A stretch of DNA of 56,860 nt, counting the filler, from Porpidia crustulata (lineage: Eukaryota), in assembly GCA_964255105.1 (NCBI GenBank). It is 3 parts of 3 records of this genome, joined end to end, with 100 filler letters (N's around TTAATTAATTAA, not from the genome) between each part and the next. Parts side by side here need not be neighbours in the genome. Positions count along the whole stretch, not along the records: positions 18,993 to 37,880 come from CAXUWE010000163.1; 2 more parts are not named here. One strand, given 5' to 3'. Positions 22,303 through 47,737 of this stretch are shown piece by piece. Numbering within the stretch: position 1 is the stretch's first letter; each line of letters begins with the position of its first letter. Below the pieces are notes generated by a model. That model was not told the DNA's origin. It did not search any database and saw only the letters and a list, made by a program, of their open reading frames with translations. The position numbers and the translations under genes are program-made.

Positions 22303-24737
22303 ATGCCGACCGAAGCTGCGCCGATCATTGTAACTGCAAGCGGTAACTTGTATGTCAAGGATCAACTTCAATCCGTGGGATGTCCCTACTGAACGATACA
22401 AATACTGACCTTGTTCAAAACTCTAGCCAAGGTAACGATGGCTCTTGGTCAACTTTGAATATCAGTGTTGGGACGCCTCCCCAGTATGCGCAAGTGATCG
22501 CCTCAACCGAGACACCAGAGACATGGGTTGTCGGTGTGAACGGCTGCTTGTCCATGGATCCGTCAAATTGCACGGTAAACCGTGGTGGGACGTTCGACAA
22601 GATCAAATCCTCAAGTTGGATTACCAAGGCACCTTATCTCCTTGAGGCAGAGAGCAATCTGGGCTACACATCGAATAATGATACTGGCGGCTACGGATTT
22701 GACACGATCGGCATTGGAAAACCTGGAGCTGGGAATGTCTCCGTGGATGGCCAAGTAGTAGCAGAAGTCCTGACCAAAGACTTCTACGTTGGAACCTTAG
22801 GTCTTGCTTCTCGACCAATGATCTTTGGGTCCGACAACGACCCGCATCCCAGCTTGATAAGCTCGCTTCAGAATAGAAGTCTCATTCCAAGCCTTGCGTA
22901 TGGCTTCGCGGCTGGAGCATCGTATCGTAAGTGGCGCTCCTATTGATGTGATGTTCATAATTAAGAACATTTCATATAGGTAATGCGGACACCAGCTTGA
23001 CCCTCGGCGGTTATGATGCCTCCAGGTTCATACCCAACGATGTTAGCTTTTCATTTGGTCCACAATCCACCCGGCAGCTGGTCGTCGGCCTGAAGGCCAT
23101 CTCTTATAGCGACGCGAAGAAAACAGACTCACCACTTTTGCAGACGGGAATCCTAACGCTTCTGGACTCATTGACCCCTCAAATATGGCTCCCCTTGGAT
23201 GCATGCCAATTGTTTGAAAAAGCCTTTGGGATTGTATATGATCCAATCCCAAACCTTTACCTCATAAACCAAACAGTGCACGATCAACTCTTGCAGCAGA
23301 ATGCGAGTGTGACTTTCGAGTTATCGAACACTCTGAACGGAGGCCCTTCGGTCCAAATTATATTACCGTATGCGAGTTTCGATCTCGAAATCGGTCCGCC
23401 ATTCACAAAAAGCGTCTCAAAATACTTCCCCCTTCGTCGCGCGGCGGACGGAAATCAGTATACCCTAGGTCGAACTTTCTTACAAGAAGCGTCAGTTCCA
23501 CAAGTTCCTCTGGTGTCGCACGATAAAATTTAAGCTGATATTTACTAGTTACTTGATTGTAAATTATGAGACCTTAAACTTCTCAGTATCGCAATCGACG
23601 TACAGTCAAAGCACACCGCCACATATCGTGCCCATACCAGCAACTAACAGCACAGCCGAGAGCGCTCCCCCAACTACAAGCCCGGGGCAGCCACAAGTGT
23701 CAGTTTCAACCGGCCACGGCTCCCAATCTTTAGGGATCGGAGCCATAGCGGGTATTGTGGTTGCTCTAGTCGGGATCACATTGATTTGCGGGGCCGTTAT
23801 ATTCTATTGTAGGCCCTCACGACGTCGTCGTAGAAAATCTGTCGAGGCTCCGGCATATATCATCACACCCAAGGATGCATTCGAGGTGCAAGGATCTCAC
23901 TTTTCTAACACCACGGCTAAGGATAAAATCGTCGATATCATTCAAGAAGAAAAGGATAGTCCTATGACCCCTCCAGATGAGCGATCAGGATACGAATTGG
24001 ACGCGGGACGTGCACTACCTTCGGAGTTGGGGAGCCCGATACCTGAACTACCGTCGCCGGGCCATGAGCCGCCGACCTTTGAGCTGGCATCGCCAGAGAC
24101 TGTGCCACGAAGAATAGCGCCAGATCCAAGTCCGATAGCGCCATCAATTACAGCAATCCGATCATCATACAGAAACGAGTGGAATCAATCAGGAACACCG
24201 TCGCCAGAATCCGAGTTCACAAGTGCGCCCTCGCCAGATTCGGCAGCTGCATCGCCAAGTATCAAGAGAATTTCTAGGAGACCGACATACCCGAGACAGG
24301 ATTCGCTGGGTGCCGAACCTGTGTTGTCCTCGGCGGCGAGACCAGCGACGAGACCAGCGGCGAACCCTGTGCAACCACGAGGCGATTCGATGTACTTCGA
24401 AAGCGGACGGACACCAGATGCCATGCAATCGAGCCCGCTCCCTAATCGGACCGGCTCATCAAACTTTGGTCAATGGTCAGGAACATCAACCGGAAGATCT
24501 ATGCACGGAAGAGTCCAGTCTAAGGACTCGATTGATTCGTTCGATACAAGGTTAGAGCACGGTAGCCCGTCAGGGACCTATTCTGGGACCCCGCGAGTAC
24601 AAGCGTCACCATCCCCACTCCAAGAGTATCACAGTCACGAAGAGCTGCGATCGGCCATGTCGTCGCCGGAACTAGGTTCGGAGAAATCGGGCCTAATGTC
24701 GCCGCCACCATTACTCAAAAGGTTTGAAGACTCTTGA
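22303..24737 (+). CDS. Pepsin-fold (peptidase A1-like) protein with one TM helix and a long Ser/Pro-rich cytoplasmic tail; catalytic dyad degenerate
   Basis: GNDGSWSTLNISVGTPPQ, GTLGLA, LIPSLAYGFAAGASY, SLTLGGYDASRF, LLDSLTPQIWLP, YFPLRRA..QYTLGRTFLQEA/YLIVNYE; TM GAIAGIVVALVGITLICGAVIFY followed by RRRRRK; three introns. Confidence 0.85.
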
Positions 24738-26280
24738 GAGCAATCTGATCTGTTCAGGCCCTGATGGGAGTGATGCGCGGGTACAATCATCGATGTGTTA
24801 CTTCAGCTCTAGCTTCTTGTTATTAATACTCTTTATGATTTCTAATGATGGATGATGGGTCTAGGTAGGTGATCGGGTATAATCAGGTATGATACTACGG
24901 TGTAAGGTCGGGAACGCACGGGTCTAGAACAGGGCAATCATTCGACCACGGCTCTGGTACGGCGAACTTTATTCAATGGGTGGCACATGGCAAAAAGGGG
25001 ATCGGGTTTGTCGTGCCTGGCGTGGGTTTATGATTTGACTTCGCAACGATTTGTATATGGTGGAAGGCCCGGACACTGCCGCGTCTTGGCCTGCCACACT
25101 CCGATCTAGCACGATTTTGCCGATGTATTTACATAGGACTCGCCGAATCTTCGCAGGGCATCGCCACCTTTTCGAAAACTTTAGGTAATCGTATTTTGTC
25201 CCTTGCACCAAAAATGGAAATTTCCCCTGCAGAGCATTTGAAGTTAGCGTCCGACTACCTTCCGCTGCCCTAACGAGTTAGCATAGTATTAGCGTGGTGG
25301 GGAAATAGCCTTTGGTCTTCTTTGGGACGTCGAAAAATGTCGTGGAAAGTGAAAAGGCCTGGCAGCCTCGTGTTCGCAAATCCACCCTCGGCACTGGAAA
25401 CCTACGTGAAAAGTTCGACTGTGGGCCGTCTCCATGGGTGAAGTAGCAAAGACAAGTATGTGCTCGTGGCACAGGTGTCCATCGTCGAAACTGCTCTTGC
25501 TAAGGTACAATTGTCTCTTATTACCTCAAGAGCTATGGATCTGAAGAGGTCAAATGGCCATATGCTCATCTCACCTACAGCTTTGATGACGACAACAGTA
25601 CTGGATAGCACAGCCACGATAACTCCCATCAGCTTCGATTGTAGCCATGAGTGCTAGTTCAGCCTCCGAAGTCAAGGACACCCCCAAGTGGGATGGACCA
25701 ATGAGAGCCTTCAAGAATGACGCTACCTACTACGTTCCTCTTGGTCTGAAGTTTGTATGAAATAGACTGAGCCTCTGAGTCATTTTCGATACAGAATGAC
25801 TTTATTGCCAATTTCGCAGTCAAGATTCCACTCAGTAGTGTTGGCCTGAGATTTGAAGTCTTCTAGATTCGCAGAGCCGATGGTCGGTTCCTGGCACTAT
25901 ACTGAATACGGAAGCAATGTACTATGACCGAACCTTCTATGCGTCCATCTTACTCTTTCCTGGCCATCTAGAAGTCAGCACCTCTCTTTAACTGTCAATA
26001 GCCAAACGTGTATGCTCAACACGGCGTTGGGAGGCTAGTTCCTACTGGTGCATCATATCGGGATTTATGTACAAGATGTCTAGACTGTTAAGATGTGGAA
26101 AGCTTCATGATAGTAATGCCCTTGACTAGAGTTTGTGGTATCTATATAGTTGTCCATTTCCTCATCTCTAAATCCAACATCAAGTCCTTCGCTCCATCAT
26201 CAACACGCTCGTTTTCAGCAAGTGACGAATCCTTGCACTTCAGTCCTTTACTCATTCTATCAAGGAATTTCATTCAACAG

Positions 26281-27630
26281 ATGGCTTCTCTCTTTGTTGT
26301 TGCCGCCCTGGCTGGGTTGGCAGCTGCTTCTCCGGCTGCTCAAGCTTTTGACCTAGGCGTCATCGGAGCCGCACCCATTCCAACTGTGACCGCTGCTCCC
26401 CTTGCATCTCTCCTCGACACCATTTCTTACAGCCCAGCGGACGCCACAGTTCTGGGATCCTCAGTGGCCAATGCCGTAGGAACCGCTGCCGCCAAGGTTA
26501 AGCGTGACGACGGTGGATGCTGGGGCTACGGGGGATGGGGCCCAAAACCCTCGACCTCGAAATCCATTTCGTACTACCCTTCCCCCACGCCAACCAAGTC
26601 TCAATCGCAGACTTCTGGTACAGCCACGACCAGCTCTTCCACATCATGCCCCACCACTCCTGAAGCTGGTACATACTGTGGATTCATTAATCCTGAAGAC
26701 CCTTGCGCTCCTCAGCCAGATGGTTAGTCCATCTGAGACCCCGTCAATGAGCTCTACTGACCCAATCCAGGCTATGGCCCACAAGTCTCTCCAGATACCG
26801 TTGAAGCCTTTGAAGCCTACCCCCAATTCCACTACCTCGCCAAATCTGTGAGAACCCCCTACGGTTACGCGGAAACCTTCGCCGATCTCAACGCCTCCGT
26901 CTCTGCAAATTCATATCTCGGTCTGCACACCTTGTCGAGCTACAGTGCTCAAGACTGCTCCGCATGGTGTGATAACACCACCCTTTGCACGGCCTTCAAC
27001 CTCTACATCGAGCGCGACCCAAGCCTGAATCCCAGCACCAATTGCACCCAGCCCTCCTCGATCACAAACTTCAAGTGCACGCTCTGGGGCTCCGGCGTCG
27101 AGCCCGCTGCCGCTAACAACTTTGGTGGCTACCGCGGAGATTTCCACGTTGTCATCGCTGGCTCCAATGGCTACGAAAAGACCAACAATACCCTCCCCGC
27201 CGCCCCTCCAGGCTGTGGAGCGCCGACTCAGTGCCCCAAGGGCGCCATCAACGACCCTAAGCACTGTATGGGCACCAAGTTCTTCCCAGGGCCCTTTGAC
27301 GTCAACGTCTGCAGCGGCTACGCCTTGGGCCAGAATGACTACAACAAGAAGCACAGCAGTTACAAGGCGGGCAACAGCAAGTGCGAGTCCTTTAACGCAT
27401 ACATGGTCAAGGAGGACGGTGTCGCCAAGGGCACGTACTGCGCGCTGTACGACCAAGTTTATGACTCCAACAGCTGCAGCTACCAACCGGGTTGGATGCA
27501 GGGACACTACTACGGCGTCGAGAGTTCGTGCACTTACACCGTTGGTGAGGGCAAGGACGGGAGCTCCGAGGATAACAGCGGGGATTCCTCTTCGAAGAAA
27601 GGGAAATCGGGATCCGAGGGCGGTGACTAG
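26281..27630 (+). CDS. Secreted Cys-rich fungal protein, possibly PAN/Apple-like or carbohydrate-binding (intron 26723-26770)
   Basis: Signal peptide MASLFVVAALAGLAAA; dibasic KR site (KVKRDD); CSAWCDNTTLCTAFNLYIERDP...NFKCTLWG; second Cys-rich module C..FNAY....GTYCALY. Splicing joins ORFs 26095 and 26848 in frame. Confidence 0.8.
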
Positions 27631-28402
27631 ATGAAAGTAAACGGGATGGGAAAGGAAGCATGGGAAAGAAAGCATGGGAAAGGCGATTCTCGGCGATGTG
27701 GAAAAGCGTTGTTTTGGCGGCTTTGATGAGCATGATCGGTCTGGAGTTTTATCATAGTTTCGATCTAATCGTAATTACTGCAACGGATCCTGGAAGTTGT
27801 TCGTCTAACACACTCATTTCATCCCTTTTGCCACGGCGGTTCTCCACCTTTCAATGCCTCTAGTTGCAGTTTCGGATGATGTGGATCTCCTGATCTGTAC
27901 AATGGATCAATCCGCAAGGATATCTCGAACGGAGACCATCCACACCGCAATTCCTCAATTTAACCCGAGTGACTAATCCTTCCTAGAAGTCTCTAGACTC
28001 GTATCCTGTAATGGCGTACCTAGCCTAATTTGATGTATTATTATGGGAGACAAGAAGACAAGAAGACACCGCGATTGAATTTCCTTAGGTTTAACGGGCT
28101 TGCATAGATCCCTATCACCCTACCTAATCGGTAAGCTTTGCAGGCAGGCACGCAGGTACTGTGAGGCTATGTTATAATCAGCCGCTGAGTAGGCATCGAA
28201 GGATGGAAGTCTAGTATTTGAATTATCGAGCAGCGACAACACAACCCATCACGTTATAAAACTCCATCCAATAGCTCATCGCAGACAATTTCAAATTTCT
28301 AGTGAAACTTTCATGTATCCTGGACCGATCCAACTTATCACCATTGCGAACTGATAACCTACCTTACTCGCCGCACGCCAGTACATCAGTCTTAGTGGTG
28401 CG

Positions 28403-29860
28403 ATGGCCGTGAATATGATCACCCGGCTTCCGCCCGAGGTCATGATGATGATGCTCAAGCATATCCCGGACCTCAGGACGCTGCACAACATTGCGATGGC
28501 ATATCCTAAAACCATAGGGCTGGAGATCAGGCGCAGGTTGCCGCATCTGATTCCAGAGGTCCTGGCACGATCTATGCCTGGAGAGCTTCTACAGTGCCGT
28601 TCACGAGTTACATCAGCGTGGCACTCGCGAAAGCAGTGAGCTGGATTTCAATCAACTCGATGGCGATTTGTTTGGCTTAGAGCCTGATTGGTCACGTAGC
28701 AGACTAGAAACAATCAAGGATATGCTGGTGTTGCATGATACGGAGGAATTTTATGCTCAGGATTTTGTCGGTAAGAGGCGCCAACCTCCGAAAGAGTGTG
28801 AGGCGTTTGCAAAGACGGCTGGTCCTCCTGAAAAGATCGAACTTTATCGGATACACCGCGCCCTTTGGCGGTTCGAATTCTGTTCTAAATTGGGGCATAT
28901 GTTTGCGCAGATTCCATTGCTCCTGGGACAGCGGTCTCTGGACTGTTCGGTATACAGGCAGACCATATTCCTCCAAAGCCTGCGTTTATGGGAGATAGAA
29001 GAACTGAACTGTGTATATGATCATCTCCAAGCGCCAGTAGAACCCTCGCGAAAGACTCGAAGTTCAAGGGTCTAAGATGTTCTGCGATTGCAGCAAATAA
29101 GATCAGAAATTTCGGAACAGTTGTATAGATTTCCGAGAAATGGCCTACTCTCTATCCGTCAGTGTTTGACTTTAAAGGAAGGGAGAAAGTCTGGAAGCCT
29201 CCTTCGGGCAACTTCTGGGAGTCGGTTCCGGGACACGACGGACCACATTTTTTGTACTCTGCAGGTAGCCATATTCCTGGACTTGCGATGCAGGAACCGT
29301 TTAAATCCTCAAGAGAAGCAAAGTCTTATTCAGGAGAACCAGGGGCTGGCATACCCACTCCCGGGTGGGAGGTTCTAGCTCGAAAGACACCATTCTGTTC
29401 TTCTGATGATGCTGACAATACACGTCATGATCCCGTATCCGCACGCGTGCAATCTTTCAAGTTTATACGGCGCTGGGCCTTTTGTATCTGGGACGCAGAC
29501 TGCTTGGACCGATGGAATATATCTAGCAAATCGTACGGGAATGATCTTCAAATGCTCGAGCGAATGCCACTCTATCCAGAGGTGAGTCTAGCACGCGAGA
29601 CGATTGCACGAATAATTTGGTTTCTATACTTGAAAGAGATGCAGAATTGCTCGTACACACGGTGTGATCATGAACATACCGTAAATGGAAAATTCAATAC
29701 AAGATGGTCTACGATAGCAGACGGCAATTTCGTGTCAGAGCATGAACTACAGACCTTCGATTTTGATATTGCCAAAATCAAAGGCATACTCAACATAGAC
29801 CTAGACCCGCACCAGCATCGTTCGCTGTCGAATCGTCAATTCGAATTCCAAGCGCCCTGA
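28403..29860 (+). pseudogene. F-box-like fungal gene disrupted by two frameshifts and an in-frame stop
   Basis: LPPEVMMMMLKHIPDLRTLHNI (F-box-like) / ELYRIHRALWRFE..WEIEELNCVYDHL / TAA 29073-29075 / IRRWAFCIWDADCL, spread over changing frames with no introns of plausible size to repair them. Confidence 0.65.
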
Positions 29861-30469
29861 GTCTTGCTATCAACGTAGTTCGGCTGAATCAACTGCCGAA
29901 AGGCAAGCCTGATAATCGAAAACAGGATTCTCATTTCTTTAATGTACCAATGATCTTCCCCCAATACAAGCGATGTAGAGTATCTCTGCATATGAAGGCA
30001 GCAGCACCACTCAGTAGTGTTGCCTTCAGGCTTTGCCTGTACGTCCGTATCGCCTTATGATGGAGTTTAGCGATCTTTCGGAGGGAGACCTTGGCAGCAT
30101 TGACTTTGTATAGCAGGAAAAATTTCATTAGCATTTCATCTTTTCCATGTCGGAGTTGAGATACCATCGCTCAAGGTACAGTTTGTTATGCTATCCTCGA
30201 GACGCTTCGGCTCCGAATGATTCTCCCAAGAATGTTTTCATGTCTCTCAACCCTATAGTATGACGCGATTGGAAGATGCCTCGCGACTTAACCTGTACTC
30301 TGTCGTTGGACAATTATTGGACAGTATTTACCACGTTGGTCACCTGCATTCGTCACAATTGTCTCATTATACATTTGTTTGCAACTTTACCAGTAAGGAT
30401 TCAACATTTCTTACATTCTCTATACCCATAACCCCCCCTCAAAACCATAACAAATCTAAACACCCCCTC

Positions 30470-31012
30470 TCACCGAACAACCTCAACCCTAACACTCCGA
30501 AACTCACTCGTCCGCGCATCCGCAACCAGCGTCCCATTCAACTCCTCGCACGCCGTCCGCGCCCCCTCCTCGCTCCCAAACTCCACGATCCCCACGCCTT
30601 CATTCGCCAAAACCATGCTGCGCAGTATCGGCCCCTGCATCTCGAAAATCCCCTCGAATGCATGCTTGCCGATCCCTCGAGGCAGATTCGAAACGCAAAC
30701 GTACCGCGCGCCATCATCGTCTGTATGCGCCGGCCCGAGGCAGACGAGAAACATGTGCAGCGTGTGGCCGCCATACATGCAATAATTCATGGTCGCCACA
30801 ATCTGCCGCGCGAGCGTGTTGTTCTCGAACTCGATACTCACGTCGCCGGTGAATCCATCTGCGGCTGTGTTGTGTGGCATGGTTATGTTGTATATTTGGC
30901 CAAAGGCGCCGATGAGAATTTGGACGTCGAGGTCGGTGGTGCATTCGGGGAGGTTTCGGACGACGAGAAGGGTTCGGTGGGTGATGTTGGAGCACGGGCC
31001 GGAGCAAGCCAT
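30470..31012 (-). CDS. Small intronless protein with two RRM (RNA-recognition) domains
   Basis: LLVVRNLPECTTDLDVQILIGAFGQIYNI..GFTGDVSIEF; VCVSNLPRGIG..FEMQGPI..GVGIVEFGSEEGARTACEELNG. Confidence 0.75.
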   Translation of the reverse strand: MACSGPCSNITHRTLLVVRNLPECTTDLDVQILIGAFGQIYNITMPHNTAADGFTGDVSIEFENNTLARQIVATMNYCMYGGHTLHMFLVCLGPAHTDDDGARYVCVSNLPRGIGKHAFEGIFEMQGPILRSMVLANEGVGIVEFGSEEGARTACEELNGTLVADARTSEFRSVRVEVVR

Positions 31013-32383
31013 TTTTGAAGCGGGGATGTAGATGCCGTGGATTCTTGTTGTTGGCGAGTGAAGTCTTCCTTTTGTGCTGAGTCTGGTAGGTCTGGTAGGT
31101 CTGATCTGGATACTGTGCGAGATCTTTGATTTGAAGTAGGTGAGAATGTGGGTAAGGGATGGACGTTAGCAGTCTGCGCTGCTTATATGTGATTTGATTC
31201 ACAAAGGGCATTCATCTCACATCAAAGCACTATTCTTCCAACCTTTCAGAAAACCTCCATTCCATCAAAAGTTTGCCCAGGTCACAAAGTAATTGACGAC
31301 GATGCCCTTGTTCCGTCTCTTTGACGCCCAATCCACTAAGCAACCTTTGTGGCACATAAGTTTGTACACAACAAAGCATCGCACAATCCCCCTTTCGTAC
31401 ACAACAAAGCATCCACCAATCCCCCATGTCGACATAACATCTTCTTTGTCCTCGCAAAATCACCCCGGAACTGCGGGTCAGCTGTACCAGACCCCAGTCC
31501 ACAACCAGGGAACGAGAAGTACGTCTGGAATCAAGAACACGCATATCGCCTTGACTCTCAAGCAAGATCCGTCAGCTTTTTGGTATCCGTGGATGCTGGG
31601 AGTTGGTCATGCTATGGCTGCTGTGGAAGACGGATTTAAATGTTTTCTTAAGGATTTGGATAGACGAGCGTGGGTGTAGGTCTGGGCTATGTTGTTTGGA
31701 TTTTTTTTTCTTTGAGTTGGGATAATTGGGTCCGAGGATACGGATGGATGAGTGCGGGTGTGAGTATACTCCGTATAACTCCAAATATAAACACAACATA
31801 TACCAAGAGAAAAAAATAGAACTACAACCATCAAAACTATCGCTACGATAACCCAAAAAGATTAAAAAAATTCCCAAGATGATAAAAATCAGACTATCAT
31901 TTCAGCCAGATATACTATCCTCCTTATTCGGTTTCGAAACAGGCTGATAATTAAATAACTATTCTATGGATAACGATATCGGTGTCTCTTACATTATAAA
32001 GGAGATGCGCAGCGGCGTGGCGGACAAGTAGCGGGGATACTATAATATACTCGTTTAATATAAATAGCCAGCTGGTTATAGTTCTCGTATTGCATCTAAC
32101 TAATCGCTGCCCCTTCACTCCTGAGCGGAGCAGCGCCCTTTATATATACCTAATACCCCTATACCCAAGTGGCGCTAACGCGGCGCCAGCGCCAAGTCGC
32201 CCTTTCGACAACTGGGCCGAGGCCCTAGGCCCTAGCCTGGACTTGCCCCAGATTCCTTATACCCACACTTACTACGTATAGATAATCCATCCCAATGGCC
32301 ATATTGCTAATCCAAGAATTTTGGCCAGCTTTGTGACTCGCAAAGCCCGATGTGATCAGAAGAGAGGATGCCCAACCGCCGAT

Positions 32384-35300
32384 ATGCGGTGGCTTGGTAA
32401 CAAAACAAAAACAAAAGATGGCAGTGATATCGGCTCTTCTACGCGTGATGATACAGCTCCAAAACCCATTGTGAGTGGCCTTTGTTGGTAGCTCTCATCT
32501 GTTGATTAGTAGTCGAGCAATGGCTGAACACGGAATAGCCGGCCATAGAATCGAGTATTTGGGAGCGCGCTTTCACTCAATTGGGAGATGCCGAACCGGA
32601 TCTCATCCATAGGTTCAATTCGATTCTGGTCTCCGAAGCGAAGGGTCCCGACGAGCATGCCGGTCACGATTCGCCGACTCCTCCCACCCAGGCCAAGATG
32701 TCAAAGCTCATTGAGAGCAAATTGGCTGCCATGCAAGATCGTCAGTGGAAGGTATCACTAGGCAAGAAGTCAATTGAGATTCGGGCTCAGGTGAATCGCA
32801 TTTTACAGATCGTCAGTGTTGCGAAAGACCTTGGCTCCTCCTTGGCTTCTATGGATCCAATACACGCTGGCATCCCATGGGCTGGGGTTTGCGTGATTCT
32901 TCCAGTAGGCTCCTCATCTTGTGGGACTTTGATAGGCTCTAAAGTTGTCTTTAGCTGCTCTTGAATGATAGTCAGCAACGAAATGTCGCCATAAAAGGCC
33001 TTGAGGAAATTGCTAAGCTGATCCGGCGATTTTCCGAAGTGGAGAACCTCTACTTGCGAAGGGTTAACCACAGGCTTGTAGAAGACTTGAAAGATGAGCT
33101 TCTCATAATGTATCGCAAGGTCCTCGAGTTCGAGGCACGTGCTGCCTGTCAATTCGACCGCAATACGGCATCCCAAGCCATTCGCAACATTGTCAAAGCC
33201 GATGGATGGTCAGATCTTTTGAATGATATCAAGGAATCTGAGACTAGGTGCAATATACTGACTCAAATCATGGATGCTGAGAATCGACACAAATGGAACG
33301 ACTTGATAGAGACAATGATCTCAGAGCAGACTGCCAAAGTGAACGAGCTGCTCCTCATATCCAAAAGCCACAATGACGAGGAGCCCATGCGTGGCCTGTC
33401 TCGCGCGAATACTTTCAGAGGTGAAGAGCCATCCTCTGCTAACAGGAAGGAAGAGGCTGAATGCATCACCCTATTCCGTACTACCGACTACGAATTTGAC
33501 AAGAACAAAAACCCTTCTCGAGTCCCGGGTACCTGCGAGTGGGTACTAAATCATCCTGTATTCCGCAAGTGGGATCAAGAAGACAGCATCAGCTGGCTCT
33601 GGATTACGGCCAACCCAGGTTGCGGCAAATCTGTCCTCGCCCGATTCCTGACTGAAGACTTCCACAAGAACAAAGAAGGAACGTACATTTGTTACTTCTT
33701 CTTCAAAGACGATTCCGAGACGAACAGAAGCGCTAATCATGCCCTCTGCGCCATTCTCCACCAGCTAATGTGCTATGATGCAAGGATGGTTAGGCATGCA
33801 CTAAGCGCTTACGCTTCCAATGGTAAACAGCTGCCACATCTCATAGAGTCGCTTTGGAAAGTCTTCATCGCCACCATTGAAGCCCTCGACAGGCCTCTTC
33901 TGTGTGTATTCGACGCTTTGGACGAGTGTGAGGAGTCCTCAAGGCTGGATCTGCTGGCAAAGCTGGCACCTCTCTTCGGCAAAGGCAGTCATCCTAACAA
34001 GTTGAAGATTGTCATGACAAGTCGCCCCAACACGCCAACAGGTGATGCAATTTGGCGTCATGGCGTTGATCCAATGTCTATCCAATTGACAGGAGAACGA
34101 GAGCTCGAATCACAGGCAATCTCGAGCGAGATTGACTTGTATGTGACTGAAAAGATCCGAGGATTCAAAGATCTGAGAAGACATCGACAAATACATGACG
34201 ATGCACACGAGACACTAAAGCAGAAGATCTCGAGCATCGAAAATCGAACATACTTATGGGTCGCTTTGATATTCCCAGAGCTCGAGAAGAATGCAGGACT
34301 GTCAAAGACAAGACTTTCAAGCATGATTGATCAGATTCCGACTACGGTACAAGAAGCTTACGAAAAGATTCTCAGCCGAAGTCTGGACCGCCAGCGGGCC
34401 CGGAATTTACTACACTTAGTCGTTGCAGCGTTGAGGCCTTTGACGTTGATTGAGATGAACGTAGCACTAGCAATCGAAAGATGGTCAGATCAAGAAAGTG
34501 AACTTGATGTCGACCCTGAAGAGACGTTCGAGCTGACCATTCGAGAACTCTGTGGTCTATTTGTCACTGTCAAAAAAGGCCAAATATATCTCATCCATCA
34601 GACTGCTCGAGAGTTTCTTATACGAGATAAAGAGCACGCTCGGAAGGATGCCCTCGAGTCTACTGCCTGGAATTGGCGACACTCATTGCTGCCGATAGAA
34701 TCACATCGTCTGGCTGCCCATACATGCATGCTTTATCTCTTGCTATACAGCATTCGCAATGACCAGAGGGCCACACACAAAGCCAGTGAGGGTGTCAGTT
34801 CAAATGAGATAGCAGCAGAGAAGCCATGGCGGGCGCTGTTCGACTATGCAACAACATACTGGAGCGCGCATTCAATATCTACGAACTTTACGAGCAAGAA
34901 TCTCAATGAACCCTTCGATACAACCACAAGTACCGCAGGGAATGAGTTTACATGGCTAGAAATGTACGGAATTGGTCCTCGGTGGCTTCCTAGTGCGGCA
35001 TACGCCTCGTCAGCTCTCAGCATGGCCTCGTATGCCGGTCTATATCCAGTTGTACGCGAGTTGTTGCTTACTCAAAGCGCCGCCGATGATGGAATCAGAC
35101 CCTTGAAATACGCTATTTGCAATCATCACACTGGCACAATTGAAATCTTGCTCGACAATATTGCAGACAAGGAAGAGAATGAGGTTCTACTGAATGCAGC
35201 CGTTCACATCGCGTGTCATGTGAACGAGGAGCGAGCAGTTCAGAGGTTGTTAGACTTTAATGTGGTAAAGCCGGCTCACCCAGACTCTTTAGGTAGGACA

Positions 35301-36840
35301 GCTTTGATATGGGCACTCAGAGGCGAAAGCACAGAAAGTTTCATGCACCTATCAAACTATTTCATGTCGAAAGGATTACCATTATGGTCAGGCACAACCC
35401 TAAGCGCCTGTCTCCAAGTCGCCGCGAGCAACAATCGGGTCGCGGAAATACAGGAATTGCTTCATCAAACAGAGACTTTAAGCAGTGATGAAAGGCTGGC
35501 TGCATTACAGCAGGCAATTACTGAAGATCACGAAAGCGCTGTGATCATCCTCGTTGTGACCCCGGACGATCGCCTCAGATGTCCGCAGAAAGATATAGAA
35601 ATTGCGATTCATATGGCTTTGGAATACAACAAAGCCAACTCCGCAGAGTTTTTACTACAAGCCCTTACAAACTTTGAGGCTCGAAACAGTGATGGCGAGA
35701 CACCTCTTTTAATTGCCACTCGGACCGAGAACGTCATTCTTGCACATGCGCTCATACAATACGGAGCCGATGTCAACGCTGTCGCTTCGAAAGGATGGAA
35801 TAGATGTCGAGAAGGTGTTGGACAGACACCCTTGTACTGCGCAACGTCTCACAAGGATGTTGCAATCTTTTCGCTGTTATTGCAAAAAGAAGCCAAGACA
35901 GACGTGCGGTGCCATGGTGGCGATACGGCACTTCATCAAGCCGTAGCCTTCTCGAGTATGAATAAGATACAACTATTACTGGATGCAGGAGCGGATCCTA
36001 CTATTGAGAATCAATACGGTCTGACAGCGGACCAAGCTGCCTCGAGAGCTTCAGAATACATGAAAAAGGAAGACCATAGTGCAATTGTTGCAATGTTGAC
36101 CGAGGCGGCTTGTTTGCGCAGTAGTGAGAGGCCCGTGAAATATCCAGGCCAAAGCTCAAGCACAAGGAAACTAGGTTCTTGTCCACCAAAGCCCGAATTG
36201 TTTCATCCTTTGCTTTCCCAAATGAAGGATAGCCTAGATGTCGAGACGTTCAGTCAAATATTAGAGATGGATGATGATGACGAACCCTATGATTATCACG
36301 AATTCTCCAGATCGATCGTCTCTGGGTACTTCACACAGAACAAAGAGAATATCTTCAGTAGATGTGAGATTGCCATGTAAGTTACTCTGTCAAAACAAGC
36401 CCTGAGTCTTCGGGGGAAGCCAAGCTAATAGACAGTCCAGCATATGCGGCGACTTCCAGACACTCTTCATTTACGTTGGCGATAGTCTCAAAGGCAGTGC
36501 TCAAACCCTCGGTCTGAACAAGACTGCCGATTTGTGTGAGGAGGTGATGGATCTCACCCAAAATAGAGAGTTATGGGTTGGATGCAAAGACGATGGAGAC
36601 GAGTCGGATGATGTGGAGTGTCTTGTGCGCGTGAAACAACTCTACGAGGATATCAAAACGGAGAGCGAGAAAATGGAGAGATTCTTCAAAGACTTCTATT
36701 ATGAGATTCAAGACCCCAAATATGATTTACAACCCCTCGAATCGGAACACGAGGGGCCACCCGTCAATGAACAAGAATGCGATGGTGTGCAAGACTTGCC
36801 AGTACTCGAGAGCACGACATCAAAGGACAGTGTGGACTGA
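32384..36840 (+). CDS. Fungal NLR-like protein: NACHT_N (Goodbye-like) - NACHT - ankyrin repeats - C-terminal Ypd1-like pseudo-HPt domain; introns 32471-32538, 32905-32954, 36377-36440
   Basis: IWERAFTQL...DPIHAGIPWAGVCVILP (NACHT_N type); RVPGTCEWVL, Walker A WLWITANPGCGKS, Walker B VFDALDEC; ankyrins (GRTALIWA, GETPLLIA, GQTPLYCA, GDTALHQA); then TFSQILEMDDDDE..EFSRSIV...GDSLKGSAQTLGL. All splice junctions keep frame. Confidence 0.9.
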
Positions 36841-37816: not shown

Positions 37817-37880
37817 ATCTCCATCATCTCCATCATCTCCATCATCTCCATCATCTCCATCATCTCCATCATCTCCATCA
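37817..37880 (+). repeat. 9-bp tandem repeat (ATCTCCATC)x7 running into the contig end
   Basis: Directly visible; probably the cause of the assembly break. Confidence 0.95.
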
Positions 37881-37980
37881 NNNNNNNNNNNNNNNNNNNN
37901 NNNNNNNNNNNNNNNNNNNNNNNNTTAATTAATTAANNNNNNNNNNNNNNNNNNNNNNNNNNNNNNNNNNNNNNNNNNNN
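37881..37980. other. Artificial contig spacer (N-run with TTAATTAATTAA at 37925-37936)
   Basis: Same 100-bp linker as 18893-18992. Confidence 0.98.
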
Positions 37981-40416
37981 CGGTGCTCCAGGCTGATCAG
38001 CGGGCCGAAGCTGGTGGCGGGGTCGGTGGGGTCGGGGACTTCAGTTGTGGAGGAAAAGTCTGTGACCGGAGGCACTGGCTCGTTCTTGGGGACGAGGCGC
38101 TTGCCGTCTTGTTTCTTAAGAAAGGCGGAGCGGGCGGCGGAGGCTTCGGCGTCGGAGACGGCTACGGAGTATGTTGGTTTGTCCGATGACCCGAGGGGAG
38201 CGTCGGCGCCGCCTGGGGGGTTGATGGGGACTTTGCGGATGGCAAGAACGAGGGCACACATAAACTTTGAGCGGCGGGCGGCGCGAATGGTTTCGTTGGC
38301 CCAATTAGACTTTGAGAATGGAGTTAGGGCAGAAACGATTGGCAGAGGAGAGGAACTGACCTTATGTCTGATTTCTACCCGGAGTTCCAGTTTATTCATC
38401 TCTGCAATGCCTGTAATCTCGAGATCGACATCAGGTTGGAAGTCTCGCGAGTTTTCCTTATCGAGAACAAAGGCTTGCATCTCACTCTTAAGGAGTTGAA
38501 TATCTTCGAGAGAGGTGTCAAAGGCAATGTACATAAAGAGTTGCTCCCTCATGGCCTTTGACCTAGAAACATTCTGTATCCAGACCGTGTTGAGCACGAT
38601 ATTCGGGACTTGAGTCGTCTTGTGGTCTCTGACTCGTTTAAAGACAGTGAACAGTAGAGAGATGTGCTCAACGATCAACTGCTCATCTCCTATATCAACT
38701 CGATCAAGGACGTCAAATGGGTGCTTGACGAAAAGAAAGATACAGGAGCCGAGTACTTCTTGTGCAGTGGTAGCGAAAACGAAGGATAGTGACAATAGAG
38801 CGGTACCCGTGGTCGCGAGAGTCGTGGTAAAGTTCTTGTTAAGGAAGGCCACTACCTCATTGTGAGCAAACGGACAAGATTCTATGCAATGTAATACTTA
38901 CCGAAGACAAAAATTGACATGATAAAAACGACAGTGCACAACATCCCATCCAGGACGTTGATGGCCTGATCAACGTCATGCAAGCTATTGGTGATAGAGT
39001 GTCGCTCGCGGCCAAATTCACATATGGTCACGATCATTTCGTCGAGACTAATATCTCCGTTGCCATCTCGGTCCAGAGATGAGAAGCATTCTTCCGCTTC
39101 CGCATGACGATCGCTGCCAAGGACTTCCGTGATATCTTCTCTGTACAACGCATCCTTGGCCTCCACCACAAAGCTCATCCATAATCGCTTCGCCAAAGCT
39201 TCTGATGATTTGTTTTTCTCCAAAGCCTCGACGACGATCGAGTGCGCCGAGCCAGGTTTGAAGACTTGCTTTCCGGTCAGCTCAGAGGCAATGTTCCCAA
39301 AAGCAGAAGTAATCTTGTCACCAAACCGACCCACATCTTGCAGGATTCGCAAAGGCGTGGCAGAACCTGACTGGCGGTTACCGATGCCTGGCGTGATGAC
39401 TGGAAGATTGAGGGAGTCATTAATTAGATAGTCCTCCTCGAGGAACTCGGGGCAGTAAGCGGGGAACAGTGCTCGAGAGGCGTCATACAGCAAACTCAGC
39501 AGATATACGTTGTGTTTGGAATCCTTGATTTTTGCATCGAACTGCTTCCGGTGATAGCCAATACTAATGAATTGGATTATCAATTTCTCAAGAAGAAAAA
39601 TGAGTGTCGCTATTAGAAAGGCTGCTAGGATCGACTGCACAACGTTCTCCCAATTCGTGACTCCAGCATTTTTCGGATCTTTCTTGGCTGCGGCCCTTTG
39701 GTCAGGATTCCGTGTCATAACCTGCACTCATCAGTAAGGCTCGAGATCCCTACGGAGAAGAAGGAACTGACAGGAATAAAAGTAGCCAAGGATGCCAATG
39801 CCCAACCGCTAAGCGACAGAGGAACCTCCAGTGCCTGAAGCACCATGGCATACTTCCGAGTACCCGAACTGACAATACCGCACAGGAATTGGAATATATG
39901 GGGTAAGAATTTGGCGAACAGCTTGGACACCCACAGACTGAGCCATACAATCTCAGCCCAAGCGAATATCCATACAATCCGGACCCCGCCAGCGTTGGCT
40001 CCTGGAGCGGCAGTGGCTCCGATGATGATGGGGATCGCGAATAGCAGGGCCACAGGAAGGACATAGACTGTGTATCGAATGACAATGGAAAAGTTCAATA
40101 TCTTGTTATAAATCTTTCCCATCTTGGTCACGACCTCCTCTTCCCCATCGGCCCCTCTCTTATTGCCTTTGTCCTTGGCAACTTTCCGTCGGCCAGCGAC
40201 ATGTTGTGGGAAGTAGCCGTCTTTTTCGTTGTGCTGTTGGTTGGATTGAGAGCCATAAGCCGATTGCGAATTATCCATCTTGCGGGCGCCAGTCTTGGTG
40301 GTGACTTGGGTTAGAGGAATGTCAATGGTAGCATCGTTCGGATTCACCATGTTCTGCGTGCTGGTGTTGGGAAGTTGCTGGAAACCCTCTCTCGAAAACC
40401 GATTTTGTTGAGGCAT
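37981..40416 (-). CDS. MscS-like mechanosensitive channel with EF-hand (fungal Msy1/Msy2 type); 3' end truncated by contig edge
   Basis: N-terminal TM helices; EF-hand LDRDGNGDISLDE; SCIFLFVKHPFDVLDRVDI, VEHISLLFTVF, QVPNIVLNTVWIQNVSRSKAM, RAARRSKFMCALV; several introns. Confidence 0.92.
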
Positions 40417-42676
40417 CAAGCACTCGAGTTCCAGTGAGGTCGGTTAGGAGCAGGCGTTTCGCCCACGTTGCTCAAACGAAAATTGTTGCAGTGGAATGGA
40501 AGCGGCTGGGCGAGCCGTGCCACCAGGGCTGTGGTATGTAAAGACTGTGGGGTTGTGCGTGTTTCAATCAGAGTGAATGATGTGCAATGATGTGAATTAG
40601 CAAGTCAATGCTTTGATGAAAAGAATATGAGCATAGCCAAGATCAAAAGAAGGCAGAAATGACAGTATATGAGAGAGAGGTGGTCAAGAGGGGAAGGTTG
40701 TCGAATTCTGTTTTCACAGCATGTTGGACTTTACCGAGAGCGAATAGGCCTTCCATCATCCTTTAGCTCGTTTTCGCGGCAGGGCCTACAACTAGTACGA
40801 GCTAAGGCAAGGGGCCGCTGCCTGAAACGTGTCGGTCAAAACGCACTACTGCCAATCGAGTCAAGCTCATCCCTCTATTATATAATCACTCCTTTTCGTT
40901 TCTTACTACCTACCTAGTCGCCACTGTTCACCTTCCATTATTCATTAGTCTACGCTCTACACTTAACAGCTGATCCTTTCAAAATATTCAATATATATGA
41001 ACTCTCGAAAAGACAAGTCTTGAATTGTGATCATCGACATATCCCAGCTTCCCATAGCTTATACGCACACCTTCAACGCTTGCCATTACCCATTCCCTTT
41101 CCAGCCACGTTTATCCCACGTGAAGCTAACTCACAACGCCTCGCCGCAAGCAGTGCCGCCCAAGGTGCTCGCGGAAGACACCTCCCCCCCCCTCCTTTTA
41201 AAGCTAATCAACTTACACCACAGCTTGCCTAACGGCTTGCACAACAGCTTGTTCTCGCGGCAACGAAAACGAGCTTCGGAGGCCGGCAGCCTAGTATTGG
41301 AATTCCGTCAAGATGCTCGACGGTCATGATATTGACTTGCACGATACGTTTTCCCCAGCCGCACGCACAGCATTGTGGTGTAAGAGTAGACACTTAGCGG
41401 ATGTTATAAGGTCTATGATGAATTGGATACCACCGCAAGTGTAGCCCTGTCGTACTTTGTTCATCTTTGTGCTTTCCTGTCATGTACTGAGAAACTGGTA
41501 GTCGTTCATGAAGCCAGTATCATTCCAGTGACTCTTCTCTTCATTTGAATCAGCGCCCGTCCGCGCAGAACCTTTCTCCAGATGCTTATCCACAATGTCA
41601 ATCCTTATCCATAATCCATCTTCAACCGAGTCCAAAGACCCCAAGGCAAGGCTCCCCCCATATTAACCTACCAATAGCCCTCAATGCACCGCCCCCGTTC
41701 CCCATCGATGTTTCAGCGATGTTGTTGAGCATGTTACTATTATAATTTTATGGATTTCGTGGGGAGAAGAGTCTGTCACTTTTGTATCGCTGATGTTATT
41801 GCTGAGCGTGAGTATGGAAACAAAATGGTGGATATGGATTAGAGATGTATTTATGTGACAAACTTTTTCTGATCGTCTGGTGTCTCGGAGCGGTCGTTTG
41901 GTTATTTGAAATGGAAGTCATTCTGTTAGCAATTCAGCTGTATTGTATTCCGACTTTCGTATTCCATATCTCGTGATACCCAACCCCTTTAATCTCGAAA
42001 TCTTTGCAATCTCCCCTGAACACTCCACCGTTACTTTCCCATCTCCCTCCTTAAAGAAGCCTCTTATCTTCTCCAGCCTTTCATAATGCCGCCATACATT
42101 AACCGATAATCATATTCTGGAAATGGATTAAATCTCAAATGAGGAGGGTTCGTGTGTTTATTTTAGTAACCCGTTCAATTATTTGCTTGTTTGTCCCTTT
42201 TAGCAGTCTGTTTGATAATTTACTCTGGTTATTTGCTTCTGTGCTCTAGCTTTCGGTTGCAGAGAAGTTGTGGTACTGCAATCTTTGAGCTGCTAGCCAA
42301 GTTTCTCATTTACGGGTCTCCGTATTCTTTGATCATGGATAACCAGTTCCGTCTTTGAAGCCGCCGCAGAGCGTCAGACGGGCTGGAAGGCGTCGTATAT
42401 GCAACCATGTCTCATAGTAAGGGAGTGTCTTGATATCTACTTGAGTCTTGCAGAACGCTTTCAATTGCTGACTGCCCCGATAGATGAGAAAGGCATCGGA
42501 ATAAGACAGTTTGATTTGGATAGATCGATATGTCTTTTGTCTCGAAGAAAATCAAGTGCTGATTTCCTTGTCCATTTGTGAATGGCAAACAGACGTTAAG
42601 ATCCGATAGAACAAACTACTGAAACCACATTCAAAGAATTTGGCTTTGATGTAACCATCCGTACCCAGACAACACA

Positions 42677-45042: not shown

Positions 45043-47737
45043 TCACTTCCGATCGGGAGCATCAGCCCCGGATAAGATCATTCGTCGTTCATCTTCCCCA
45101 AGCATCAACGCCCGATCCAAGAAAATCGCGTCGAACCACTTCCAATCCGAATAAAGCTGCCGTTTCGTCATTAGTACAAACCGAGCCGCTCTATTCGCAT
45201 CTTCAATATGTTGACGTTGCTTATCCATTCTCTTATCAAAATCCTGCAACGTCATTACTCCGCGCTTCTGCCACTTTTGAATCTCATGTATATGCTGAGA
45301 CTTCAGTGTTGTCCGCTCTAGCTGCTGTGCTGTCAATAGCATTTCATGAACGGCGGCTTTCTTGGCGTCTGCATCTTGCACTTCCGGCGGAACAGATTTA
45401 AGAAGATAATTATCCTCGTCCTTACGATGTCTTGCAATAGTCCCGACCAATTCCTTTGCATGCTTCCGTTGTAGCTCCCGCACCTTGCTGTCTGTGCTGG
45501 TAATTACCTTAGCCCTCTCCAAGGCTACGTGGGTCTCTTCCGAGGCCATGCCGCCCGATATTAAGGGTGCCTCCAGTAGCGCCATATCTTCGACCTCTGC
45601 GTTATGACGCCTATCTATAGCATCGCTTTGTTCTTTACGAACTCGGTCCAATATCAATCGTAGGTTCGCAAAGAAGCGCTGGATACCATCTAGCCTTGCA
45701 TACTCCTTTTCAGACAATCGGCGCGACTCCTCGGCGAGACGTGCACGTTCAGCCTCTTGTTCTGCGACTAATTCACGCTCCGCTGCCTCAACCGCTGCAA
45801 TCGCTGCTCTGATTTGGTCTTCTTCGCCTCGCGCCTGCGCTTCCATCCTTTCACGCCGTTCAGCGATCTCATCCTGCCTTCGGGTTTGATCTTGCTCTGT
45901 ACATGCACACGTTCTCCATCTTGCACCACAGGTGTAGCTAAATAGAATTAGCAAGTCTTCCATTGATAGAAGCATTAACTTACCAAAATTCGGCTTTGCA
46001 CTTGCAAGTAATGTGTCTACAGCCTGTGTTGAGCTCCACCATGGCCCTGCAATTGTAGCATCTTTGCCATCCCGCACGCTCGGCCTCTTCTAATGTTGCA
46101 TCAAGACCATAATCGTGGGAACACTCTTCGTGTCCCGTGTGTTGAGGACCGCGGCAAAAGCCACAGGTGTGGAAACTGCAATAGCTACATTTCAAGATCC
46201 CACCCGACGTTTGAGACAAGCGCGTATTGATCCACCGAGCACAATCCGGTCGTGCGCAATAGTAGCGACTTCCGATCGAAACCGCGTACTCAAAGCTTTT
46301 CTGGTCAAAGTCCGCCATTTGCTTGGAGCTCAAATGCAATCGCAAAGTAGATCTAGGAATTTCTTGTAGGCAGCATTGTGGCGGGAACGTATCTTCGTTA
46401 GCAATCGCAGTGTTAATCAGCTGTGAGAAGCATGTTAGGCAGTACTTGTGGCAACACGGCAGATTCACAGCCTTTTTTTGAGGAACGTCATCAAAGCAGC
46501 TTGTACATTCGCTGTGTCTTGGTTCATCGTGTGAAGGTCCTGGGGAGATTGAGCGCTTCGCTCTCCGGCCAGGGAGAAGCCAAAGGAATCCATCTCGTCT
46601 CGAACGTTTGTCCTTGCCTGTGAGCGGAGAGTGCGGAGTAGCGGTGCCCGAGCTTGGGTTCGAATACAAACTCTCCTGGGAACTCATCGCACCTGATTGT
46701 CCGATTACCTTAGGCGGCGGCTGAAGGAACACACTGCTAGCATCGCTCGCGGTTGGACTAACTAAAGAATCCTCACTAGACAGCGAAGATTTACCGCGTC
46801 GATGCGATACCATAGCCGAACTCTCCGCCACCACTGGTCCGTTAGCTGAATCGCTTGAGCTCGAGGATTGAGTTATAGTGGTTCTGACTATGATTGCTTG
46901 AGTATGTAATCTTGAGGCCTTCATAGCTCGATGTTCGTCGAGTGATTCTTGGATAATATTTCTGATTTCCTCAGGTGCATCATCAAAAACGATCTCAAGC
47001 TCTTGAGGAATGTCATATTTTTGCCACGGAGTATCTTCAAACCCTTCAGTATCTATCCTTGTAACTGATCTGGGAAGAGTCTCAGGGATGAATAGTCTGC
47101 TTATTATCTTCCTTTGGCTTTGCTGTAGTTGTGGTGGGCTTTCGAGGATAGAGACTGGCGGACTCTGGGGGGTAACTTTTGTGGTGGTGCATGAAATGAT
47201 ATTCTTTGCACCTGTAGCTGGCGAGTTCGGGGGCCCTCGGATTCTGCGAGCCCTGGGACGTCGCGGGCGACGGACCGATGAAGCCTGGGAGGATGTTCGA
47301 GATGGGGTTCTTGGTGGGTCTGGCGGCAATGTTTTTGATGACCGTTGTGACGGTGGACATGGAGGCAGGGATTTTGAGGAACGTCGAGACGATGAGTAAA
47401 GTGGGTGTTGTAAGGGCTTGGTGATTCCAACCGGACGAGCCGGAGACGGTCGACCTCGAGAAGTAGAAGTCTTTCGGAGTCCGCGTGGAGAAGCGTTGAC
47501 GGGATTGAAGGGTGTACGGGTGATTGTCTTGGTGCGACTTAGTTTATCCTTGTTGTTAGATGGGCGATCCATCTGAACTTCTGTTCGACACCCAACGGCC
47601 ACCTGCCGAGCTCTGACAGGAGCAAAGGTCGTAAAGTGAGCTTCTTTGATTGATACCACGCTCGGATCCATGTCTAAGCTCTTCAATGAGCCGCAGTAGC
47701 TGATTCTAAGAGGATCGACCCCATAGGAGGACTGCAT
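45043..47737 (-). CDS. RBR (RING-IBR-RING) E3 ubiquitin ligase with disordered N-terminus and C-terminal coiled coil (intron 45938-45983; start uncertain)
   Basis: CTSCFDD..LPCCHKYCLTC..FPPQCC; YYCARPDCARWI..CSYC..TCGFC..H..C; WQRCYNCRAMVELNTGCRHITCKCKAEFC/YTCGARWRTC. Confidence 0.9.

Follow-up and report, generated by a model that had tools for sequence, protein, structure and literature searches.

A 56,860-nucleotide stretch of the Porpidia crustulata genome (assembly GCA_964255105.1), called the window here in its whole length, carries on its plus strand at positions 32384-36840 a gene that encodes a tripartite fungal STAND (signal transduction ATPases with numerous domains) protein resembling NLRs (NOD-like receptors), with NACHT_N, NACHT plus winged helix, and ankyrin repeats. 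Very probably this gene is fused, through a splice joining position 36376 to 36441, to a C-terminal domain related to Ypd1, the small histidine-containing phosphotransfer (HPt) protein of fungi. An aspartate stands in this domain at the position of the phospho-accepting histidine of Ypd1, and we regard it as almost certain that the domain is non-phosphorylatable. As far as our literature searches reach, it would be the first fungal pseudo-HPt.

The last intron and the fusion

The reading frame 32955-36380 runs through the NLR and closes at TAA 36378-36380. This TAA lies inside GTAAGT 36377-36382, which together with GCTAAT 36424-36429 and CAG 36438-36440 marks a 64-nt intron that splits a codon after its second base. 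Joining 36376 to 36441 completes an Ile codon (AT+C) and leads on into the stop-to-stop frame 36406-36840. The first-pass annotation of this DNA had proposed the intron with these three elements, the in-frame join to the last open reading frame (ORF) and a reading of the spliced C-terminus. All were reproduced from the sequence, so that its coordinates and its reading are correct. The resulting 4-exon model (32384-32470, 32539-32904, 32955-36376 and 36441-36840) gives a product of 1424 amino acids with 0 internal stops, in which NACHT_N, NACHT, winged helix, ankyrin repeats, linker and Ypd1-like HPt domain follow one another in this order. The features of the gene are:

32384..32470, plus strand: exon 1, ATG and 29 codons (M-x-W-x-G-x-K...), with a putative start codon
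32471..32538, plus strand: intron 1, 68 nt, GTGAGT...TAG, placed from the frame and from the start of the NACHT_N profile at residue 6 of exon 2
32539..32904, plus strand: exon 2, first half of NACHT_N (PF17100, E 1.6e-12, 48.2 bits, profile positions 2-114 of 220)
32905..32954, plus strand: intron 2, 50 nt, GTAGGC...TAG, across which the NACHT_N profile passes from position 114 to 115
32955..36376, plus strand: exon 3, with the second half of NACHT_N, the NACHT/NPHP3_N NTPase, winged helix, ankyrin repeats, linker and the first half of the HPt-like domain
33528..34025, plus strand: NACHT/NPHP3_N P-loop NTPase core, residues 192-357 of the exon-3 frame, with GCGKS and DALDEC motifs
35607..36029, plus strand: best-scoring stretches of the ankyrin repeats, residues 885-1025 of the exon-3 frame
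36030..36230, plus strand: linker from the ankyrin repeats to the HPt-like domain, open in every orthologue, poorly conserved, with indels in frame only
36231..36376, plus strand: first half of the HPt-like domain (Ypd1 helices A and B), with ...ETFSQILEMD... and ...EFSRSIV..., aligned to the canonical Ypd1 proteins P0015 and P0016
36377..36440, plus strand: intron 3, 64 nt, phase 2, GTAAGT...GCTAAT...CAG, containing the TAA that closes the naive ORF
36441..36726, plus strand: exon 4 core, HPt-like helices C, D and G, with the family motifs WVGC..DG and DFYYEIQDP.YD
36481..36483, plus strand: Asp codon GAT at the position of the phospho-accepting His of Ypd1
36727..36840, plus strand: acidic tail of low model confidence and the stop codon TGA (36838-36840)

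Orthologues of the gene were of two kinds, five known from protein only (P0001-P0005) and four loci in metagenome contigs (L001-L004), the latter being those confirmed among 387 pattern matches when the contigs were scanned with the family alignment. L001, L003 and L004 have the exon order of the window, with collinear domains, and are about 47% identical to the window protein over 1140-1162 residues. In L002 the 5' end is truncated, and the 3' part matches the window arrangement. The last intron was found in the identical codon and phase in all five DNA sequences (window and L001-L004). Its length, 64 or 68 nt, is not divisible by three. It starts with GTAAGT (window) or GTACG (L001-L004) and ends with CAG, and 12-20 nt upstream lies a CTAAT, CTGAC or CTGAT element. 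Between the two clades the intron sequences are dissimilar, though the position and phase were kept. All five protein-only orthologues, which are 81-94% identical over 1129 residues, end at the donor codon, reading ...CEIAM or ...CEIAR and then stop. Such a shared end is what a conserved GTAA donor gives if read as ORF.

L001 (JAABUK010001844.1) and L003 (JAABUU010000977.1) come from different assemblies and differ by a proportion of nonsynonymous changes (pN) of 0.005 and a proportion of synonymous changes (pS) of 0.02 over 1034 codons. Both data sets contain one and the same fungus or very close ones.

The last exon was also used as a phmmer query against 1.84 billion representative proteins. 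This returned 12 matches, none longer than 183 amino acids, of which seven are ORF-called last-exon fragments of the family (P0006-P0012) and five are canonical Ypd1 proteins, whole or partial (P0013-P0017). P0007-P0011 are known from such protein fragments alone. In a search for long proteins with the HPt-like domain, none of 70 candidates from a single sequence and none of 8000 from an alignment obtained a score, both results being weak negatives. The first-pass annotation had expected ORF-based annotation to split the gene, and this is what is seen, with P0001-P0005 representing the NLR cut at the donor and P0006-P0012 its last exon. The protein collections searched do not show the architecture, since ORF calling truncates the protein at the donor of intron 3. 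Gene calling in the ORF style hides such architectures, which is a practical warning.

One could hold that there is no fusion, and that the NLR ends at TAA 36378 while the HPt-like pieces form a separate small gene or untranslated remains. The lack of a long protein with the HPt-like domain in the collections searched agrees with this view. It is nevertheless very improbable. In 10/10 sequences (window, P0001-P0005 and L001-L004) the NLR frame continues from the ankyrin repeats into the first half of the HPt-like domain without meeting a stop, and the intron kept its position and phase over a deep divergence in which its sequence was not kept. The domain also lacks a conserved start of its own. 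The Met before the domain (36222, ...QMKDS...) is missing in 5/10 sequences (P0004 and L001-L004). In the window and L003 no in-frame ATG precedes helix C within exon 4, and this exon has no conserved start codon. A stand-alone Ypd1-like gene starting at Met 36222 was considered and was rejected on the same count of orthologues.

The last exon is under purifying selection, which likewise speaks against the no-fusion view. Between clades, the exon-4 core has pN of 0.29-0.39 compared with pS of 0.78-0.86. The ratio of nonsynonymous to synonymous substitution rates (dN/dS) is 0.21 for the exon-4 core (L003-L002) and 0.18 for the NLR body (L003-L004), and pN in the linker is 0.61 (window vs. L003). 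Indels in the linker and in the tail are in frame. In two relatives about 95% identical, the sole indel in the 901-nt stretch compared is a 12-nt in-frame insertion at 36790, in the acidic tail.

The NLR body was examined with Pfam. The exon-3 frame scored 138.4 bits with NPHP3_N (cut-off 24.8), 42.6 with NACHT (cut-off 26.7) and 37.2 with GPIID_WHD, likewise above the cut-off. Its ankyrin part scored 105.6 bits with Ank_2 in four stretches, and Ank, Ank_3 and Ank_4 were each above cut-off. NACHT_N was matched in two pieces of 48.2 and 42.0 bits, covering profile positions 2-114 and 115-215 on either side of intron 2. NACHT, NACHT_N and Ank, the NLR profiles named in the first-pass annotation, are therefore all above their cut-offs. 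The exon break at intron 2 is also present in L001, L003 and L004 by tblastn, and a 29-codon exon 1 with the M-x-W-x-G-x-K pattern, followed by GTAAGT, also precedes these three orthologues. With all three canonical parts passing the Pfam cut-offs, and with short GT-AG introns, the gene resembles the fungal NACHT_N-NACHT-ANK NLRs (NWD-type STAND proteins), from which it differs by a fourth, C-terminal domain.

A Ypd1-like domain without its histidine

Exon 4 alone matched the Pfam Hpt profile (PF01627) with E 6.6e-5 and 23.5 bits, under the 24.6-bit cut-off. The match covers profile positions 35-82 of 84, being limited to these because the first half of the domain sits in the preceding exon. 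When the exons were joined by coordinates and the spliced tail was compared with proteins from the database search, it aligned to the full-length canonical Ypd1 P0015 with 70.9 bits over residues 27-154 of 159, gapless at the junction, compared with only 39.3 bits for exon 4 alone. The score with a second canonical Ypd1, P0016, was 62.8 bits. Of the 10 residues of the segment ETFxQILEMD, the window, L003 and L004 share 7-8 with P0015. A profile built from exon 4 and its relatives retrieved from PDB the HPt structures 8rqg, 8pbw and 8rqj of Chaetomium thermophilum (E 3.8e-5 to 1.4e-4), and hhalign of the exon-4 family profile with a canonical Ypd1 profile gave 97.4% probability and E 1.3e-11. 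These alignments make homology of the tail domain to stand-alone fungal Ypd1 a solid conclusion. An AlphaFold model of exon 4 has helices at residues 5-22, 26-39 and 54-89 with a mean pLDDT (predicted local distance difference test) of 71, and a disordered tail (residues 100-132) with pLDDT <50.

Compared with stand-alone Ypd1/YpdA/HPT-1 (PF01627; 8pbw, 1qsp, 1oxb), the domain is homologous over its whole length and shares the helix order and the helix-A/B motifs; its intron is probably at the matching codon, as judged from proteins. Unlike Ypd1, which stands alone, the window domain is fused behind a 1240-residue NLR, and its family has Asp or Glu for the His, an inserted loop (WVGC..DG), a helix extension (YEIQDP.(F/Y)D) and an acidic tail.

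The first-pass annotation had read the C-terminus as following the Ypd1 pattern end to end. This holds for the alignment to P0015 across the junction and fails at GHFLKGSS, where the window has G-D-SLKGS and its Asp aligns to the phospho-accepting His of both P0015 and P0016. Eight distinct family sequences cover this site. Seven have Asp (window, P0007, P0008, P0009, L001, L002 and L003), one has Glu (L004, identical to P0012) and none has His. With Asp or Glu in place of the His, a domain is unable to serve in His-Asp phosphotransfer. The title of entry 8rqg records the crystallisation of a His-to-Glu mutant of a fungal Ypd1.

A plant protein offers a parallel. AHP6/APHP1, in which the His is changed to Asn, is a pseudo-HPt described in the accessible part of PMC7402358 as competing for the partners of true HPt proteins. 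Both it and the window domain have the HPt fold without the phospho-accepting His. AHP6 is stand-alone, has Asn at the site and is of separate plant origin, whereas the window domain is acidic at the site and is part of an NLR. A literature search for fungal pseudo-HPt proteins found none; the papers that it found concern, in their accessible portions, plant two-component signalling.

Over the eight family sequences, 12 columns are invariant, among them W45, G47, D51 and G52 and, further on, D84, F85, Y87, I89, Q90, P92 and D95. The family has two motifs that are absent from Ypd1, an inserted loop W-V-G-C-x-x-D-G and an extension of the last helix, D-F-Y-Y-x-I-Q-x-P-x-(F/Y)-D. Since the family has invariant motifs of its own, it is an old and conserved pseudo-HPt. 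A different explanation is that a captured ypd1 copy is eroding neutrally and that the loss of the His is part of its decay. The lost His agrees with this, as does the divergence of most members beyond detection by Pfam. However, every copy has open frames, pN stays far lower than pS, the 12 columns are kept across all eight sequences, and the site of the His has Asp or Glu in all lineages. We find a decaying relic scarcely credible.

In an unrooted tree of 10 family and five canonical rows, from which L001 (near-identical to L003) and P0012 (identical to L004) were left out, the family and canonical Ypd1 are parted by a branch of 1.8 changes per column with support of 100/100. This fits a single capture of ypd1. 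The domain is old and forms one group apart from canonical Ypd1. Three ORF-called canonical fragments from other fungi (P0013, P0014 and P0017) bear on the origin of the last intron. Their resemblance to Ypd1 breaks off exactly 13 residues ahead of the His, and the Arg or Ser found there corresponds to an in-frame read of a phase-2 AG acceptor, at the codon homologous to that split in the NLR. This suggests that an intron position widely conserved in ypd1 matches that of the last NLR intron and that, on the evidence of these proteins rather than of DNA, the captured ypd1 copy brought its intron along. The HPt-like domain is thus probably derived from a ypd1 copy that kept its intron. The first-pass idea that a ypd1 copy was captured behind the repeats stands as to the homology and, probably, the kept intron. 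The gene is a conserved orthologue under purifying selection and not a recent capture.

Possible roles of the pseudo-HPt

The helix-A region of Ypd1 lies outside the bundle core and provides much of the receiver docking face, as in Ypd1-Sln1 receiver complexes; entries 1oxb and 5kbx came up in the structure comparisons described below. Because the helix-A/B segment is the best kept and an acidic residue stands at the phosphate position, receiver binding without transfer appears the most likely activity. On balance, then, we think that the domain probably still binds receiver domains, namely those of hybrid histidine kinases and of Ssk1/Skn7-type regulators, and that no phosphate would be transferred. 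Tethered behind the ankyrin sensor arm, it might act as a bait whose occupancy would be read by the NACHT switch, as in the integrated-domain model of plant NLRs. That the domain is, overall, a bait or sensor rather than an output is a proposal that we make tentatively.

Integrated decoys are familiar from plants, where RRS1 carries a WRKY domain and Pik-1 and RGA5 carry HMA domains. The window gene likewise encodes, in addition to an otherwise complete NLR, a fused domain that has a stand-alone host protein as its homologue. In the window gene as in NLRs with integrated domains, this extra C-terminal domain is related to a host signalling protein and has lost its catalytic function.

In fungi, a 2025 survey of Sordariales reports, in the portions available, 185 kinds of non-canonical domain in 378 NLRs, and puts forward the idea that a C-terminal kinase descended from CHK-2 is a decoy (PMC12258605). 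The terms Hpt, PF01627 and "phosphotransfer" are absent from the accessible main text and supplementary files 1-13 of that survey (PMC12258605). Our full-text literature searches found no description of an NLR-HPt fusion, and PMC5371717, as far as its text is accessible, mentions NACHT, Ypd1, HPt and ankyrin in unrelated places only. The suggestion in the first-pass annotation that the architecture was undescribed is borne out to this extent, and has to be narrowed in that integrated decoys in fungal NLRs are already in print (PMC12258605, in the portions available). What is new is a pseudo-HPt as the integrated domain, together with the link to the two-component relay.

Several observations weigh against the domain being a bait for the relay. 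A bait should resemble the guarded protein, and the identity of family members to canonical Ypd1 over the whole domain is 23-42%. The window copy is the most Ypd1-like, with 42% identity to P0015 over 128 columns, compared with 31% for L003 and 23% for L004. Unlike integrated decoys, the domain is thus strongly diverged from its presumed guardee. Only the window copy, one of eight family members, matches Pfam Hpt at E<=0.01, and beside the former His the family columns vary, with K/K/Q/R/L at the Lys and G/S/S/G/S/V at the Gly of the canonical GHFLKGSS. The invariant family motifs point to a new interface rather than to Ypd1 mimicry. With the partial (exon-4) model, Foldseek placed HPt proteins in its top rows at E 0.37, with nothing at E<=0.001, and VIA-align superposed this model on HPt structures with Z of 6.2-7.1 and root-mean-square deviations of 1.4-3.2 over 61-82 residues, values which are ordinary for helical bundles. 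The structural match of the partial model is consistent with HPt and is not independent proof.

The remaining points against a bait concern the gene as a whole. High-identity repeat arrays are typical of fast-evolving fungal NLR sensors. In the ankyrin region no high-identity tandem DNA repeats were found, which also sets the gene apart from other NACHT_N-NACHT-ANK NLRs. The gene is moreover a conserved orthologue, with collinear domains at the identity of about 47% given above. Pairing with a helper NLR is frequent among plant integrated decoys, although it is not obligatory. Twelve neighbouring ORFs of at least 140 amino acids, between 23.4 and 47.8 kb of the window, gave 0 Pfam matches to NACHT or NB-ARC, so that no paired helper NLR lies beside the gene among these ORFs.

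Some of these observations would be explained if the Ypd1-derived bundle had been repurposed, either to serve a new partner as a helical module or to cover the ankyrin/NACHT part as an intramolecular lid. The poor detection by Pfam Hpt and the variable residues beside the former His are in favour of this, as are the long branch that separates the family from canonical Ypd1 and the 12 invariant positions, most of which lie in the WVGC..DG and DFYYxIQxPxxD motifs, the best-conserved part of the last exon. Repurposing does not account well for a helix-A segment that is near-identical to that of canonical Ypd1 across lineages otherwise 23-42% identical, or for a His site that is not random and is acidic in 8/8 sequences. 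We consider a repurposed bundle somewhat unlikely.

It may also be asked whether the domain is an output rather than a bait. Upon oligomerisation of the NLR, clustered pseudo-HPt domains might outcompete Ypd1 for receivers and block the relay in the manner of AHP6. In yeast and filamentous fungi a blocked relay leaves Ssk1 unphosphorylated, and hyper-activation of the high-osmolarity glycerol (HOG) MAP-kinase pathway then leads to growth arrest or death. The kept helix-A/B segment and the acidic residue at the His site would suit such an inhibitor, and a single orthologue under purifying selection would suit a regulatory device. AHP6 itself sets the precedent of inhibition by a competing pseudo-HPt (PMC7402358, accessible part). 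On the other hand, the executing domain of a fungal NLR is normally N-terminal and NACHT_N already fills that place, whereas sensors and integrated domains are placed behind the repeats, as the HPt-like domain is. An inhibitory output is, in our judgement, unlikely.

A more specific form of the bait proposal starts from the acidic side chain at the His position, which resembles the phosphorylated state. Phospho-Ypd1 is the form that receivers engage when a hybrid histidine kinase works backwards, as a phosphatase, and phenylpyrrole-type antifungals of bacterial origin provoke such a reverse mode in group III kinases. Asp or Glu might make the domain a permanent mimic of phospho-Ypd1, with the NLR guarding the relay by sensing which receivers grab the bait. 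The NLR would then be an innate-immune guard that detects chemical or protein attack on the two-component relay. This is a speculative extension and we hold it to be decidedly improbable. If true, a phospho-mimic bait would give fungal NLRs their first integrated domain that is mechanistically tractable.

We know of no antagonist or effector that targets Ypd1, and our literature searches found nothing on antagonist targeting of Ypd1 that activates an NLR through an integrated copy. To our knowledge, the ligands and triggers of almost all fungal NLRs have yet to be described. An NLR with a conserved, catalytically dead copy of the single hub of the relay names a short list of partners, the receivers of hybrid kinases, Ssk1 and Skn7, and because this list is short the question is directly testable. 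It also links NLR surveillance with the HOG-controlling phosphorelay, two fields that have so far been studied apart.

Neighbouring genes

None of the 12 neighbouring ORFs (0/12) matched L001-L004 at E<=1e-5. Upstream of the NLR, six plus-strand frames of 174-422 amino acids at 23469-31018 gave 0 Pfam matches at E<=0.001. Downstream, at 37820-37960, a 9-nt microsatellite (CATCATCTC repeated) runs into an N gap that starts at 37881. A short TTAATTAATTAA island lies within this gap, which abuts the low-coordinate end (37929) of a minus-strand frame.

Three consecutive minus-strand frames at 37929-40443 apparently form one multi-exon gene for an MscS-like mechanosensitive channel with an EF-hand (Pfam MS_channel_2nd, E 9.8e-7; EF-hand_6, E 3.5e-4). 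A channel of the osmotic-stress type is thus next after the NLR in the window, across the N gap. Since the neighbourhood is not conserved in L001-L004, its place there is probably a coincidence. Further downstream, at 45980-47803 on the minus strand, a frame of 607 amino acids contains an IBR domain (RBR-type E3 ligase) with E 7.3e-7.

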